Below, in pieces: positions 11,981-36,240 of a stretch of 64,000 nt of DNA. Positions within the stretch are counted from its first letter, which is position 1, and every line of letters starts with the position of its first letter. The stretch is taken from UHGV virus genome UHGV-0348865. One strand, 5' to 3'. The DNA is from a virus. The notes beneath the pieces were generated by a model, which made no database searches, was not told the origin of the DNA, and saw nothing but the letters and a program-made list of their open reading frames with translations. Made by a program: the position numbers and the translations under genes.

Positions 11981-12763
11981 TTACTTTATACCAATGCTAG
12001 CCAAACGCCTGAGCACTGCTTGTGTTTGTGGACTGTACTGAGAACCTGCTGCATGTGGTGCACTTGCCCTCTGAACTGTTTGAGAAGTAGGAGGTTTACC
12101 AGCAAGCATAGCAGCTACTCCTAATACTGCATTACCAAAGTTCTGCTGAGGCTTCTGGTTTTCTCCTTCCTGCACTTCATCAGAGTAAAACTCTACTGGA
12201 TTGCCACCTAAAGCACCAGTCTTAGAAGCAGCAATTTCTGCCTGAGTTGGGGCTTGAGCAGCCTTCTCCCTATCAAGAGTATCCGGACTAAACTGATTGA
12301 CTGGTTGAACAGCTTGCAAAGCTCCAATAGGGTTAGCAATCTGAGAAGCTGCATCATCATAGAAAGGAAGAAAGTGTTTGTTGTTCATTGAGTCAAGGGC
12401 TTGAGGTGTAAATCCCTTTTTACCGGCAAACATTTGCTTAGCTCCACCTATACCTTCTGAATAACCAACCATTGCTTTCTTAACATCACCATTAAAAGCC
12501 TTTAAGTTATCTCTAATATAACGAGCACCCATATCAATATTCTTTGCTGGGTCAAGTCTGTCTTCTAGTTTGTAACCGTAGTCTTTAGCCAACCCTTTAC
12601 TGATCTGCATTAAACCTACAGGACCAGTTCCAGAGGCTACCGTAGGACGACCACTAGACTCTCTTTGGATTACAGCATGAATCAAAGCAGCAGGAATCCC
12701 ATACTTCTTTGAAGCCTGTTGAACCATTGGGTCTAGTTCTTCAATACCCATTTTAATTGCCAT
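11981..12763 (-). CDS. virion-associated lytic transglycosylase (SLT domain)
   Basis: SLT signature ...VIQRESSGRPTVASGTGPVGLMQISKGLAKDYGY (catalytic E-S and GLMQ motif); strong RBS. Confidence 0.8.
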   Translation of the reverse strand: MAIKMGIEELDPMVQQASKKYGIPAALIHAVIQRESSGRPTVASGTGPVGLMQISKGLAKDYGYKLEDRLDPAKNIDMGARYIRDNLKAFNGDVKKAMVGYSEGIGGAKQMFAGKKGFTPQALDSMNNKHFLPFYDDAASQIANPIGALQAVQPVNQFSPDTLDREKAAQAPTQAEIAASKTGALGGNPVEFYSDEVQEGENQKPQQNFGNAVLGVAAMLAGKPPTSQTVQRASAPHAAGSQYSPQTQAVLRRLASIGIK

Positions 12764-31241: not shown

Positions 31242-32783
31242 TTAGTAACTCTGATTCCATCTGCTTACGTTTGCCTCATACAAAGAAGCACTTCCGTAGC
31301 TAACGTCATGCTTAGAGCGACCACGATGTGTAACAGAGCACGCTGAATAGCGCATTGCATCCATTAAGTCATCATGTTCTTTAATAATCTTACCAACCTT
31401 ACGGTGATATCTAGCTTTCTCTTCAAATAGCTTAGCGTTAGCGGCTGTGTTAAAGATTTTAAAGCGTCCACTCATCATTCTTTCTCGGATATCCGTGATT
31501 CCCGGTTCTACAAAGAAGTTCTTTTTACCATCCATTCCAATTTTGTTGTAGAAGGTCTCACTCTGTACGTTAACTCCTGCATTCTTATAGAATTGAGCAA
31601 CAGATGAACCACTACCTTTCTCAATATTGTCCGCATCGTGCGGTAGGATGACAGGAATCCACTGACCACGACCATTAATAGCTGGAGCATGATACACTGG
31701 AGTAAAGCCACCTTCTTTATATGAGTCGTAAACATAGATAGTATCCGTGTTTGCATCGTAAGCTGTCCAAACAGCAGCAGTTGGGTGATCAATACCAATA
31801 TCAATTGCACAGACACGTTTCCACGTATCAGGAATTTCGAATGGTTCACATTTAATTGTGTCATCCGATACATCATAAATCAAACCACTTCCTAACAATG
31901 GCATACCTTTCGAACGCATCTCTAACTGCCACGCTGGAATACCTTCAGTCATATCTTTTATATCTTGGTCAGTGATATGTCCACCTAGGTCTGCATGAGC
32001 ATCCCACCAAGAAGCATTCTGGAAATATAGAGAACCTGTGTTCTCATCCCCTTCACCTTTCATAAATTTATCTACCAGTTCAGTTAAACCGTTCTCTGGT
32101 GTAGCTGTAATTGTAACTAGACCTTTAGTTGTGAGTGTACGTGTGACGCACTGTGCGAATATAGCCATAGACTCGTATGGATCTTCTTCGTCTAACCAAA
32201 TGTAGTCAACTGTTGCACCCATCAATGTGTGTTCACCCTGTTGGGTTGAACGGAATTCTAATGTACTTAAACCGTCAAACTCTCCTCTTTCGTTTTGATG
32301 TTTGATTTGTACGATTTGAAGTTTGTTACCATCTCGCTCTATCGTGTCAATGACGATAGCATCACGAGGAATGACACCTGTCCCCAATAAGTTTGTATCC
32401 TTTCCGATAGGCGTACCAAACAATTCCTTTTGCAACACTTTCCTTGTGGAATCCCCTGTAATACCAACTGCCCATGCTAAGATAGGTCTTTTAAATTTAT
32501 ATCCTGTCCACCAAGTTGGGTAGCGACCTGTGACATGACAAGCAAACTCGTATGCCTCGCTGTAAGATTTACCAACACGGTTCGCTGCACACAAGAATCT
32601 AAAGCGATGCTTCAATCCTGCTGCATAAAATTTCTTTTGGAAGTCATACGCCTTGAAAGACAAAATCTTATTATACTTCCTCCATTGGTCACGCTCTTTC
32701 AACATATTCAATAGTGCTTTCTTTTCCTCTACACTAAGGTTGTTACCAGTTAGAGCTTCATAAATTTGTTTATCTAATGACAT
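31242..32783 (-). CDS. terminase large subunit
   Basis: ATPase P-loop FLCAANRVGKSYSEAYE, a WLDEED Walker B-like motif and a C-terminal nuclease region (IDIGIDHPTAAVW); GGAGGA RBS. Confidence 0.9.
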   Translation of the reverse strand: MSLDKQIYEALTGNNLSVEEKKALLNMLKERDQWRKYNKILSFKAYDFQKKFYAAGLKHRFRFLCAANRVGKSYSEAYEFACHVTGRYPTWWTGYKFKRPILAWAVGITGDSTRKVLQKELFGTPIGKDTNLLGTGVIPRDAIVIDTIERDGNKLQIVQIKHQNERGEFDGLSTLEFRSTQQGEHTLMGATVDYIWLDEEDPYESMAIFAQCVTRTLTTKGLVTITATPENGLTELVDKFMKGEGDENTGSLYFQNASWWDAHADLGGHITDQDIKDMTEGIPAWQLEMRSKGMPLLGSGLIYDVSDDTIKCEPFEIPDTWKRVCAIDIGIDHPTAAVWTAYDANTDTIYVYDSYKEGGFTPVYHAPAINGRGQWIPVILPHDADNIEKGSGSSVAQFYKNAGVNVQSETFYNKIGMDGKKNFFVEPGITDIRERMMSGRFKIFNTAANAKLFEEKARYHRKVGKIIKEHDDLMDAMRYSACSVTHRGRSKHDVSYGSASLYEANVSRWNQSY

Positions 32784-32944: not shown

Positions 32945-33418
32945 TTAACTCTCGTCCGCTTCCTCCCCCTTTTCAGCGTCCTCAGAGTTGTCTTCTTCTG
33001 GAGGCATAACGTCGATACCAAGTGCTCCAGTCAAGAAGTCCTTGATTTGTGCATTCAATGATTCTTCGTTGATTACATTCTCTTCCTCAATCTTAACTTC
33101 AACAGAGGCCGCCTTAGGATATACCAGATCTGCAACTTTTGATGCAGCCTTGAATCTAAGATCAGGTGGAATATTAGGATCTTCGTAAATTTGAATTAAC
33201 ACTTCATCAGGAGACAAATGACTTGCAGCAACACGGTCCAACATTAATTGTGTCAGTTTACCTCTACTACCTCTGGGTCGTCCGAATTTATTTCCCTTTT
33301 GAAACTTCCCATTGCTTGGGTTCATACCACGGCTTTCGAGTTCTTCCGTTACTCCGGGTAATCTTCCTGTAACCTCAGCTACCTGTGCAGGCGTGAGTTC
33401 TCCGTTTTCTCCAAACAT
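32945..33418 (-). CDS. putative terminase small subunit
   Basis: 157-aa protein upstream of the large terminase with a basic N-terminal region and acidic C-terminus; assignment mainly positional. Confidence 0.5.
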   Translation of the reverse strand: MFGENGELTPAQVAEVTGRLPGVTEELESRGMNPSNGKFQKGNKFGRPRGSRGKLTQLMLDRVAASHLSPDEVLIQIYEDPNIPPDLRFKAASKVADLVYPKAASVEVKIEEENVINEESLNAQIKDFLTGALGIDVMPPEEDNSEDAEKGEEADES

Positions 33419-33474
33419 TTTATACTCCTTCTACATTATCAACAACACAAAAAGCCTCCCAACGGAGGCAAACA

Positions 33475-34110
33475 TTACTTACAATCACCAACGGACAGGT
33501 TAAACATCTTACCTAGAGCAATCGTCTCACCTTCCCACGGAAGTTCTGCACCCTTCTCTTCCTCTAAAAGAATAGAGCCGTCGACCAAAAATTTTTCGTA
33601 GTCTCGCAGTGCGTCGTCTACTAACTCACTCTTGTGAATCCACGTAATAGTTTCTGTACCATCCTCTTCGATTCGAACATCACGATGCCATTCATCTTTG
33701 GAGGTAATGTAATCATGGAGCATTTCATATTCAGCTTCTTCAATCATCTCAATCATTGCACGAGCGTAGTCAGGGAGGTGATCATGTTTGGTAGATTCAT
33801 ATTCAACTACTTCCAGAGTAGATGGTTGTGTTTTAGTTTTAGAATCAGGGCGAGTAGTATGAATCAAATCTAACATGTTTTTGTTCTCCGTAATAGTTGG
33901 TTTAAGAATACTTCCACTATATAAATCTTGTACAGCTAGTCCTGAAATATTTCCCATAGTTTCTAAATGTTGCAAGCTACAACCAGAACGGCATAGCTGT
34001 GAATTATAATCGTTAAGGTCCATTGCTTTAATGTGGAAAGGAGAACCAGAAGGGAAACTACCTCCATCTCCATAAACACCTTCCATGTTACGTGCGATTA
34101 AACTATTCAT
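33475..34110 (-). CDS. hypothetical protein
   Basis: 211-aa ORF at the head of the minus-strand operon. Confidence 0.45.
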   Translation of the reverse strand: MNSLIARNMEGVYGDGGSFPSGSPFHIKAMDLNDYNSQLCRSGCSLQHLETMGNISGLAVQDLYSGSILKPTITENKNMLDLIHTTRPDSKTKTQPSTLEVVEYESTKHDHLPDYARAMIEMIEEAEYEMLHDYITSKDEWHRDVRIEEDGTETITWIHKSELVDDALRDYEKFLVDGSILLEEEKGAELPWEGETIALGKMFNLSVGDCK

Positions 34111-34357
34111 CTGTCTCTCCCTTACTATAATCTTTATACGTTTCTACTTTGTAAGTGCGGAATGCTCTGAAGAAGAGCCAACCTAAGCTACTCACATCAA
34201 TTGTAATATCGAAATCTGTTTCATCATCTAAATCAACAAGACGACCTAAGCATGTAGCTTCCATCCCTTCTTCAGAGTCACTATTGATTACGAAAGCGTA
34301 TGTCTCTGTTCTAAACCGAGGCACCATCTCTGATAAAAAGTCTAATACTAAATTCAT
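34103..34357 (-). CDS. hypothetical protein
   Basis: 84-aa ORF; first gene of the minus-strand operon. Confidence 0.4.
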   Translation of the reverse strand: MNLVLDFLSEMVPRFRTETYAFVINSDSEEGMEATCLGRLVDLDDETDFDITIDVSSLGWLFFRAFRTYKVETYKDYSKGETDE

Positions 34358-34380
34358 AATTCTTCTCCTCTGAATAAGAG

Positions 34381-34508
34381 TATAAAGGGCACATCATAAG
34401 ACCTACCCGTAAAGGCCTCCTCATACCAACAACCCGTGTACGCTGAAGTAAAGGGCATGTCATAAAGGGGACTTCATGTTAAGGCACCTTCATAAAGGCT
34501 ATATCACG
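34381..34508. repeat. tandem iteron-like direct repeats (6-7 units of about 15-18 bp)
   Basis: Successive units AAAGGGCACATCATAAG / AAAGGCCTCCTCATACC / AAAGGGCATGTCATAAAGG / GGACTTCATGTTAAGG / CACCTTCATAAAGG / CTATATCACGTTAAGG with an AAGG...TCAT...AAGG core. Confidence 0.5.
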
Positions 34509-34670
34509 TTAAGGCTTATCCACCCACGTACTGAATCTCAACTTACCACATTCCTTACACTTCCATGTTGATAGATACAAACCATGTATTCTTTCATCCC
34601 CGTAAGCTTTACGAAGAAGATAGTAATTGTGCTTACACTTCATCCGTCTAAATACTTTAATTAGATTCAT
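34509..34670 (-). CDS. small zinc-ribbon-like protein (53 aa)
   Basis: Only the 3' third of the 139-aa track ORF; internal Met preceded by AGAGAGGA; CKH...CKEC Cys/His pairs. Confidence 0.3.
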   Translation of the reverse strand: MNLIKVFRRMKCKHNYYLLRKAYGDERIHGLYLSTWKCKECGKLRFSTWVDKP

Positions 34671-34819
34671 TAAGTCCTCTCTTAAGCTTATATATAAGAG
34701 TTTAAAATTCTGATTTGACCGAGTGGGGCTAGCCGCTCGCCGCGCGTTTCCTAAAAAGGGGGAGTCCTCATTTAAAAAAGGGTTATTGGCAATGCCTTTA
34801 CCCTCCCTTTCAACGTTCC

Positions 34820-35290
34820 ACCTTTCCCCGTGCCTACTCCCCGTAGTTATTCCCCCGTGTATACTACCCAATACATTACCTACCCGTTTATTTAGTACCC
34901 CTTTAGAGAGTGAGAGAAAGGCTAGCACTGTACAGGCACAATCATAACAGGTCTAATAATACCGTATAGTAACCATTCCGTCCCCCATAGTTTGAATGTA
35001 AATAGTTTCAATAGTTGTTATTATGAGTGCAATAATGATATATGTATTAATTAAGTGGATGATTGTATTTCTTTTAATTGTTTCTTTTATTACTTTCTTT
35101 TTCAGCGTACATGAGCGTAGCGAATGGTCTTTGATGTTTGAGTAATGCTATTAATAGTTAACTAATTATTTAAGTGGTATATTATTACCGCACTATCTTG
35201 CTATGCTTCCCCGTGGTCTGTTCTGCGGTTGTTGTATCCCCGTTTGTCCTGGTCTGTTGGTCTGTTACCCGTGGTGTTACGCTAACGCTA
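34820..35290. repeat. non-coding region with recurrent CCCCGT(G) and GGTCTGTT motifs and an AT-rich tract
   Basis: CCCCGT occurs at least 6 times in about 34825-35280; GGTCTGTT three times near 35215-35265; 34960-35110 is strongly AT-rich. No credible ORF. Confidence 0.35.
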
Positions 35291-35403
35291 CGAATGTTAT
35301 AAAGTAACAATAAGAAGTAAGCTGATTCTCTGAGTATGGAAAGATTAGTAAATTAAATTCCTTTAGTTTTCAGTAGGATGCAAGAAAGTTAGAAAATAAA
35401 TGA

Positions 35404-35431
35404 TTGACAGTCTTTTCCTTTATTATATAGT
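35404..35431 (+). promoter_or_regulatory. sigma70-like early promoter (TTGACA-16-TATAGT)
   Basis: Perfect -35 hexamer and near-consensus -10 about 40 nt upstream of the 35470 gene; a second TTGACA lies directly downstream. Confidence 0.5.
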
Positions 35432-35469
35432 TGTTGACAGTTGATTGAATCTATCTAAGGAATAACGAA

Positions 35470-35958
35470 ATGGCTAAAGCAATGCAGGTAGTTAATCTGG
35501 CAAGTTATGCACTGATTGCCGCGATCGGTGTTAGTGCACTGGTCACATCTCTTTCTGATAAGGCTATCGCTAGTCCTGCTCCTGCAACTGATGCGGCTAG
35601 TGTCTTCTCTAGTTCCATCAATAAGGGTTGGATGATTTGCAACGGTGCGGATAGTGACACCAATCAAATCGTCTTAAAGGTTAAATTCAGTAACGTTTCC
35701 CGTGATGGTCTGGTCGTTAGTACCAAAACACTAGATAATCAGGGCAATGAAGATTTGCTATTGAAGCGTACTGATAACGATCCCGAACTAGTTACCTTCG
35801 GCACTGTACAACGTTACAGTCATGCGAAAGCTGTCACGAATCTGGTCAGTTATGGCCCGATGAACGAATCAATGCTTGCTACCACGGTTTACAATAACGA
35901 AGATAATGCGGTTTATACCGTACACATCAATTTGGCTAACTGTATCGGTGCTAAATAA
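35470..35958 (+). CDS. secreted/periplasmic early protein with N-terminal signal peptide
   Basis: AAGGAATAA RBS; hydrophobic N-terminus VVNLASYALIAAIGVSALVTSLS followed by a Ser/Thr/Asn-rich mature region. Confidence 0.55.
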   Translation: MAKAMQVVNLASYALIAAIGVSALVTSLSDKAIASPAPATDAASVFSSSINKGWMICNGADSDTNQIVLKVKFSNVSRDGLVVSTKTLDNQGNEDLLLKRTDNDPELVTFGTVQRYSHAKAVTNLVSYGPMNESMLATTVYNNEDNAVYTVHINLANCIGAK

Positions 35959-35982
35959 TATTAAATCTAACAGGAAATATTT

Positions 35983-36240
35983 ATGGGAAATGAAACTATC
36001 GCACTGATTGATACACATAATTACGGTGGCGTTACGCTCTCCTTTGATGAATCAACCGACGCTGGTTATTTATCTTTTCTTGCTAAAGGTGAGATACAAA
36101 ATATCCGCTTTCCCGTTGTTTGTCTGGTGCAGGATTATATAACAGTTGGGAAGTATTTGGCGCAACGTGGGATTCTCCTATCGCTGGAAGAAGTGGAACA
36201 AATCAGTGTATCCTTTTTTGGCGAGGATAGCAACCAATGA
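35983..36240 (+). CDS. hypothetical early protein
   Basis: 85-aa ORF with RBS. Confidence 0.45.
   Translation: MGNETIALIDTHNYGGVTLSFDESTDAGYLSFLAKGEIQNIRFPVVCLVQDYITVGKYLAQRGILLSLEEVEQISVSFFGEDSNQ

Follow-up and report, generated by a model that had tools for sequence, protein, structure and literature searches.

The phiEco32 group comprises Kuravirus and the allied genera of Gordonclarkvirinae, and the 193-bp direct terminal repeat (DTR) junction of Kuravirus is an already known trait of the family. The DTR of phiEco32, 193 bp long, was established by restriction profiling, primer walking and subcloning, as the work is cited in later papers. In SU10, 454 reads drop off sharply after the last base of each repeat, suggesting blunt ends, while the DTR of Paul was determined by PhageTerm and full-length nanopore reads of YF01 carry both repeats. 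Repeats of 192-193 bp have furthermore been recognised by similarity in 30 phages of the Kuravirus group. For the phiEco32 group, the literature proposes that a concatemer is the substrate, that it is cut at two specific sites and that the repeat is duplicated.

A comparable end structure is found in Bruynoghevirus (LUZ24/tf/PaP3-like), whose DTR of ~184-186 bp (186 bp in phage tf) is similar in length and whose large terminase is related (38-39%). However, these phages belong to another family and infect another host, and their gene sets are convergent whereas those of the kuraviruses are divergent.

The DNA analysed here is a 64,000-nt stretch of the UHGV virus genome UHGV-0348865, referred to below as the window. 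Megablast of positions 34300-35500 against a phage collection returned 98 matching records, all of them Escherichia or Shigella kuraviruses, with phage FH3 as the closest junction match at 92.8% identity. Judged from these matches, the source phage is a coliphage podophage of the Kuravirus (phiEco32-like) type.

The ORF layout shows that transcription diverges at the junction, with leftward genes on one side and rightward genes on the other, and the cumulative GC skew reaches its minimum at 34-35 kb. The first leftward gene (34509-34643, minus strand, 44 aa; phrog_7696, E=1.8e-13) is homologous to phiEco32 gene 1. Further along the same strand lie a putative terminase small subunit (32945-33418, 157 aa; phrog_8771, function unknown) and, adjoining it, the terminase large subunit (31242-32783, 513 aa), which matches phrog_2 (E=1.4e-34) and the Pfam families Terminase_6N and Terminase_6C. 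On the plus strand, the first early gene (35470-35958, 162 aa) matches phrog_21410 (E=3e-101). An earlier note on this stretch, made from its sequence, had described the locus as the point where a leftward late operon and rightward early genes diverge. The divergence is borne out by the ORF layout and the GC skew, but the late operon does not begin at the junction, as comparison with SU10 predicts early, sigma-70-driven expression for the first three leftward genes (34643 down to 33475). The late operon is instead predicted to start at the small-terminase homologue, because TAATGTAGA at 33430-33438 (minus strand), directly upstream of this candidate, matches the late-promoter motif of the phage sigma factor (gp36); for SU10, the same motif is listed in the interval that separates CDS3 from CDS4.

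FH3 and 4E8 likewise have a first early gene of 162 aa, but the majority of relatives, phiEco32 included, have a longer version of 290 aa (873 nt). The gene in the window matches just positions 129-288 of the 290-aa family profile, and the alignment with phiEco32 skips ~390 bp; from this alignment, the gene has either lost its N-terminal part or is a shorter alternative form. Bas90 and ES17 encode a terminase large subunit with 100% identity to that of the window, despite which the junction DNA is nearest to FH3 (92.8%) and only ~85% identical to Bas90. As read from these sequences, the mismatch between the closest relatives of the terminase and those of the junction is a sign of mosaic exchange among kuraviruses.

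In the deposited linear record of phiEco32 (77,554 bp), the two ends bear exact copies of a 193-bp repeat. We built an artificial phiEco32 junction by placing one repeat between the right and the left unique ends, and the window aligns colinearly with this construct over 34461-35479 at 85% identity. The DTR homologue occupies 34731-34923 on the minus strand, such that phiEco32 position 1 corresponds to window position 34923 and position 193 to 34731. Over the 193 bp, its identity amounts to 92.3% with the phiEco32 DTR and to 91.8% with that of YF01, whose annotated repeat_region 'direct terminal repeat' maps base for base onto the same interval. The homologue is present only once in the window, as expected of a collapsed assembly, and it lies at the syntenic position known from Kuravirus, between the left-end small genes with the terminase module and the right-end early genes. 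Compared with the DTRs of phiEco32, SU10, Paul and YF01 (192-193 bp), the repeat in the window thus has the same length (193 bp), 92% identity and the same position, boundary bases, internal TAAAAAGGG-N10-TAAAAAAGGG repeat and flanking promoters; it differs by ~8% substitutions and by being present in one copy instead of two in the permuted sequence.

From this correspondence, we conclude that the region is very probably the concatemer junction of a podophage of the genus Kuravirus, seen in an assembly that is circularised or permuted. Homology to the mapped ends of relatives shows the window as a permuted, repeat-collapsed form of a linear genome with ends at 34923 and 34731, and by the same homology the virion DNA of this isolate would carry the DTR at both physical ends. 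The earlier note had inferred, by analogy with T7-like genome ends, a terminal-repeat or concatemer junction and a permuted representation of a linear genome. Both inferences gain support, because the literature on the relatives documents short direct terminal repeats that match the window; the colinearity with the phiEco32 junction, the single DTR homologue at 34731-34923 and the coincidence of deposited ends agree with them.

The two edges of the repeat share a short motif. At the boundary between the DTR and the left unique region, GGCT|AGCC forms a palindrome (34727-34734), with the predicted cut between 34730 and 34731; at the boundary with the right unique region, GGCT|AGC (34920-34926) would be cut between 34923 and 34924. 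The heptamer GGCTAGC accordingly occurs at 34727-34733, inside the palindrome GGCTAGCC and hence on both strands at the left boundary, and again at 34920-34926. A search at higher sensitivity showed that the linear phiEco32, YF01 and SU10 records stop exactly at window position 34731; the record of Paul, which its authors reopened at the left repeat boundary given by PhageTerm, ends at 34924. Relatives keep (G/C)CT|AG(C/G)C at the left boundary and a (G/C)C(T/C)|AG core at both edges. The DTR edge at the right boundary reads GAGAGAAAGGCT, and the left edge of the DTR is GC-rich. Immediately to the right of 34923, the alignment with relatives is rich in indels, revealing a variable spacer. Since GGCTAGC is also present at 11996 in the window, the 7-mer cannot be the whole cutting signal.

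The length of the DTR apparently varies in the wider group. About 249 bp separate the homologous boundary motifs in Bas87 and 101114BS3 (both 732-980), the DTR of 4E8 is annotated as 206 bp (record 1-206), and that of SU7 is reported as 53 bp (record 1-53). The SU7 repeat may be under-called, because these 53 bp are just the final stretch before the shared GGCT|AGCACTG edge.

The fixed ends also bear on whether the phage could instead package by headful from a distant pac site, in which case the region would be no more than a divergent promoter and regulatory spacer, and the circular permutation of the assembly would be genuine. To some extent the terminase and the records would suit such a mode: the large terminase is 32% identical to a P22-type headful terminase among the sampled 40 of 407 records, and a good many kuravirus records were deposited as circular or with an arbitrary opening point. 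However, fixed ends with a 193-bp repeat were found by four methods in close relatives (for phiEco32 as reported through later papers), the ends of relatives map exactly onto the conserved boundary motifs of the window, and the repeat there shares 92% identity with the phiEco32 and YF01 repeats. Headful packaging would entail circular permutation, long terminal redundancy and no fixed ends, and the indirect evidence of the relatives shows fixed ends. We consider this mode very unlikely.

A cos site, at which a staggered cut leaves short cohesive single-stranded ends and no duplicated repeat as claimed for PaP3, would be in line with the 38% identity of the large terminase to the PaP3 protein and with the YF01 paper, which ties the small subunit to PaP3 by profile comparison. 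Nevertheless, the records of phiEco32, SU10 and YF01 carry the full 193-bp sequence at both ends, the sharp read drop-off of SU10 indicates blunt ends, and full-length YF01 nanopore reads carry both repeats. With duplicated repeats in the relatives' records and blunt rather than cohesive ends in SU10, a cos mechanism is exceedingly improbable. Among an evenly spaced sample of 40 of the 407 records matched by the large terminase in tblastn (E<=1e-30), the outgroups are of the PaP3/LUZ24 type (38%) and of the P22 headful type (32%), and no T7-group phage is present among those sampled. Therefore, a short DTR would not be expected from the type of terminase alone.

At the concatemer junctions of T7 and T3, a terminal repeat of 160-230 bp is accompanied by arrays of short repeats and by early host-type promoters near the end that enters the cell first. 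The details of the T7 junction are reportedly those laid out by Dunn and Studier in 1983 and by Chung and Hinkle in 1990. The kuravirus junction shares with T7 and T3 a short exact terminal repeat, short repeats of one orientation in or beside it, strong early promoters of the sigma-70 type some hundreds of bp away from one end, and the concatemer substrate, which for kuraviruses has been proposed. In contrast, the junction in the window has no sequence similarity to that of T7, and kuravirus transcription runs inward from both ends whereas that of T7 is unidirectional. The phage also uses the host RNA polymerase with its own sigma factor where T7 has a phage RNA polymerase, and the outgroups of its large terminase are PaP3/LUZ24-like and P22-like (among the sampled 40 of 407) rather than of the gp19 lineage. 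It would resemble T7 in how its ends work while probably standing outside that lineage.

Within the DTR, the most conserved part is a core at 34744-34782, which holds a direct repeat composed of TAAAAAGGG (34752), 10 nt and TAAAAAAGGG (34773). The core is near-invariant in 8 genomes and is kept in 4E8, EP335 and Bas87; its direct repeat sits 21 nt from the DTR edge. The SU10 paper describes an internal CCCTTTTTTA-N10-CCCTTTTTTA repeat, likewise 21 nt from the repeat edge and with run-length variation; it is window 34752-34782 read on the opposite strand. The YF01 paper gives DTR positions 130-170 as conserved, and these also correspond to the core at 34744-34782. A scan of IMG/VR with a 19-bp DTR motif retrieved merely four stretches from three contigs, adding no diversity.

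The DTR also contains a 7-bp perfect complement, GGGGAGT at 34758-34764 and ACTCCCC at 34836-34842, which pairs the conserved core with the second CCCGT site of the repeat array considered below. Both arms are invariant in close relatives. The complement may be due to chance, or may form a hairpin in single-stranded repeat DNA.

The junction also holds a set of short C-rich repeats, all on the plus strand. The 64-kb window contains 14 exact copies of CCCCGT, six of them at 34598-35243 and five within 34700-35300. The count of at least six that the earlier note gave for this last interval is thus reached only if the copy at 34598 or the relaxed core is included. The core CCCGT is present in 7 copies within 34827-35272 and in 10 copies within 34406-35272 (~870 bp), where ~0.2 per 450 bp and ~0.4 per 900 bp would be expected, and none of 5000 local shuffles reached 10. 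The repeats do not form a single C-rich stretch, as had been described, since four of them lie to the left of the AT-rich tract, inside the DTR (34827, 34840, 34854 and 34883, spanning 34827-34887), and three to its right (35210, 35239 and 35268, at 29-bp spacing) in a right-flank cluster at 35210-35272. The second repeat of the earlier description, GGTCTGTT, was correctly counted: it is present in exactly three copies, at 35215, 35251 and 35259, interleaved with CCCGT in the right-flank cluster.

Conservation of the sites extends beyond the closest relatives. In 8 close genomes, the CCCGT sites are invariant and the spacers between them vary, the spacings clustering at ~13-16 and 27-30 bp. 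Diverged relatives keep 4-5 DTR copies in the same orientation, and repeat number and orientation hold at 67-76% overall identity in 4E8, in EP335 (Nieuwekanaalvirus), in SU7 and in Bas87; both arrays persist in 4E8 and EP335. No opposite-strand copies of the array were found in the junctions of 4E8 and EP335. Bas87 and 101114BS3 have TACCCAT in place of (C/A)CCCGT at many sites of the DTR array and of the right-flank array alike; SU7 (Suseptimavirus) has TACCCAT in its right-flank array and a single CCCGT in the 53-bp DTR of its record. A joint switch in both arrays is expected of sites that are read by one co-evolving protein, and the pattern suggests that the CCC(G/A)T array comprises sites for one phage DNA-binding protein.

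CCCGT arrays are absent from the junction of a more distant relative, Salmonella phage pSal-SNUABM-01 (Grimontviridae), whose record has no terminal repeat, so that the arrays are not family-wide. The 2.2-kb non-coding divergent junction of this phage nevertheless contains the blocks GCGCGAAAAGGGGGAAGT, TTTCTTTGTCTTTTATTCTTTCAGTGTA and GTAAATTCCTTTATGAATCAGTGAGTTA in common with the kuravirus junction, and parts of the junction architecture would thus predate the family split.

A further repeat cluster was observed at 34383-34515, in the spacer between the first and second leftward small genes. It contains a 27-nt family beginning with TAAAGG(G/C)C in three to four copies (34383, 34410 and 34449) and two copies of TCATAAAGG..GTTAAGGC (34460 and 34490). 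The CCCGT sites at 34406 and 34433 fall inside repeat units of this cluster.

Between the two CCCGT arrays of the junction lies an AT-rich tract at 34990-35200, with a GC content of 20-23% at 34990-35109 and 25-35% up to ~35200. The tract noted earlier is therefore real, but it is situated slightly to the right of 34960-35110, where it had been placed, and is longer. It contains the conserved blocks ATTATGAGTGCAATAATGAT.TATGTATTAATTAAGTGG and TTTCTTTTATTACTTTCTTTTTCAGCGT and a T-rich run with 13-bp periodicity at 35068-35101. Near its right end, the plus-strand element TGGTATATTATTACCGCA (35175-35192) resembles an extended -10 element (TGnTATATT) and would be directed toward the early genes. 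TGGTATATTATTACCGCA is invariant or nearly so in 16 genomes of three genera; the consensus scan returned a weak overlapping match alone, TTAACT-16-TATTAT at 35158-35185.

The flanks of the junction carry predicted host-type promoters. TTGACA-16-TATAGT at 35404-35431 (plus strand), which matches the sigma-70 consensus at 11 of 12 positions, is a strong candidate for the promoter of the rightward early genes; the same element precedes CDS125 in the list of SU10 early promoters, and the records of 4E8 and SU7 annotate it as 'promoter'. Just outside the DTR, a putative weak sigma-70 promoter (GTCAAA...TATATA) at 34686-34720 on the minus strand would serve the leftward small genes. This block was missed by the consensus scan; it is near-invariant, and its SU10 homologue is listed as a potential sigma-70 promoter upstream of CDS1. 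A gp36 promoter in the junction was also considered and rejected. The motif WAATGTATA (at most one mismatch) is not enriched in the window, and a gp36-like match inside the DTR (34870-34878, minus strand) reads AATGAA in phiEco32 itself and was hence not accepted.

In agreement with the earlier statement that the region lacks a credible ORF, all five ORFs of at least 40 aa in 34643-35310 contain frameshifts or stop codons in several of the seven close relatives compared, and they were rejected as genes. Most deposited records annotate no CDS across the junction. The record of 101114BS3 annotates three small CDSs across the terminal repeat and the AT-rich tract (685-1293), which look like over-annotation because the homologous frames are broken in other genomes.

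Two further elements were observed on the right side of the tract. The extended -10-like block TGGTATATTAYTACCGCA is conserved in the region 35175-35229, and an inverted pair CCGCA...TGCGG, with arms 31 to ~105 nt apart that enclose part of the right-flank cluster, is invariant in 16 genomes. Together they could represent a promoter and leader, or two half-sites.

These elements bring up the reading that the CCC(G/A)T and GGTCTGTT repeats act in RNA or transcription, as a 5' leader, as a small RNA from the 35175 element, or as pause or regulator sites. Conservation of TGGTATATTAYTACCGCA, the invariant pair around part of the right-flank cluster and a weak terminator-like hairpin at 35211-35228 are in its favor. 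However, repeats of the same orientation are also located in the DTR and in the left unique region, so they cannot share one transcript. A scan of 34000-36000 against Rfam at a permissive threshold gave no match, and the inverted pair never varies, leaving RNA pairing without covariation support. A role at the RNA level thus seems improbable.

The combination of repeats and easily melted DNA would also be reasonable for an origin of replication, at which repeated initiator-binding sites flank the tract, possibly with activation by a promoter, and the DTR merely adjoins. This reading is compatible with the DTR reading and competes only with the packaging role of the repeats. As for an iteron-type origin, seven CCCGT sites in directly oriented clusters flank a ~210-bp tract of 20-35% GC; three genera share strongly conserved non-coding blocks, and the cumulative GC skew has its minimum at 34-35 kb. 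Promoter-linked secondary origins lie near both ends of T7. On the other hand, the change in transcription direction accounts for the skew minimum just as well, neither an initiator gene nor binding by an initiator is known, and spacings of ~13-16 and 27-30 bp are not helically phased, unlike those of classical iteron origins. Our literature search found no origin mapped for phiEco32. On balance, we regard an origin at this site as the main rival to the packaging role of the repeats, but as less likely than not.

For the repeats themselves, we tentatively favor a role in end recognition, at somewhat less than even confidence. The CCC(G/A)T arrays, together with GGTCTGYT in the right flank, might constitute a bipartite kuravirus end-recognition element that is read by one co-evolving phage protein. 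One array lies inside the DTR and the other, across the AT-rich tract, ~300 bp past the right edge. Equally tentative is the identity of the reader, which might be the small terminase or an unknown end-binding or replication protein.

The small-terminase candidate was compared between phages of the two repeat types. Between the window and Bas87, the protein is 91% identical, and the handful of differences cluster in its basic N-terminal region (residues 5-49). This covariation with repeat type is weakly suggestive and compatible with the small terminase being the site reader. The gene itself has a sub-threshold DUF5681 match alone in Pfam, and a PDB sequence search was empty; the YF01 paper calls its homologue a small terminase by profile comparison with the PaP3 protein. 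Nothing, however, ties the repeats to the terminase over a replication or other protein.

Taken as a concatemer junction, the locus can be arranged into a plausible course of packaging, modeled on the studied relatives and the T7 paradigm. By homology, one virion end would lie at 34923 and run toward lower coordinates through the small early genes, the terminase and the structural genes. The other would lie at 34731 and run toward higher coordinates through the DTR, the AT-rich tract, the repeat cluster, the early promoter and the early genes. Replication would yield head-to-tail concatemers with a single repeat between genome units. The terminase would then read signals in and around the repeat and cut at both GGCT|AGC boundaries, 193 bp apart, and repair synthesis would duplicate the repeat, placing a copy at both blunt ends of the packaged genome. 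Both ends would thereby bear inward-pointing host-type promoters, and the end with the strong TTGACA-16-TATAGT promoter would probably enter the cell first. With less certainty, the CCC(G/A)T array in the DTR and ~290-345 bp past the right boundary may provide binding sites for a single phage protein, most likely the terminase small subunit, which would mark the junction for cutting. Between the two site clusters, the AT-rich tract might serve as a segment that bends or melts easily.

For annotation, the genome should be treated as linear, with a length of one unit plus 193 bp, opened at 34923 and with the repeat at both ends; small ORFs across 34700-35310 are best left unannotated as genes. 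The terminal repeat of the family is well documented, whereas the cis-signals that direct the cuts at its two edges are undocumented. In this respect, the co-evolving repeat arrays are a modest new lead, of which we found no description in later kuravirus papers, and as conserved elements they offer concrete sites to mutate in packaging or replication assays.
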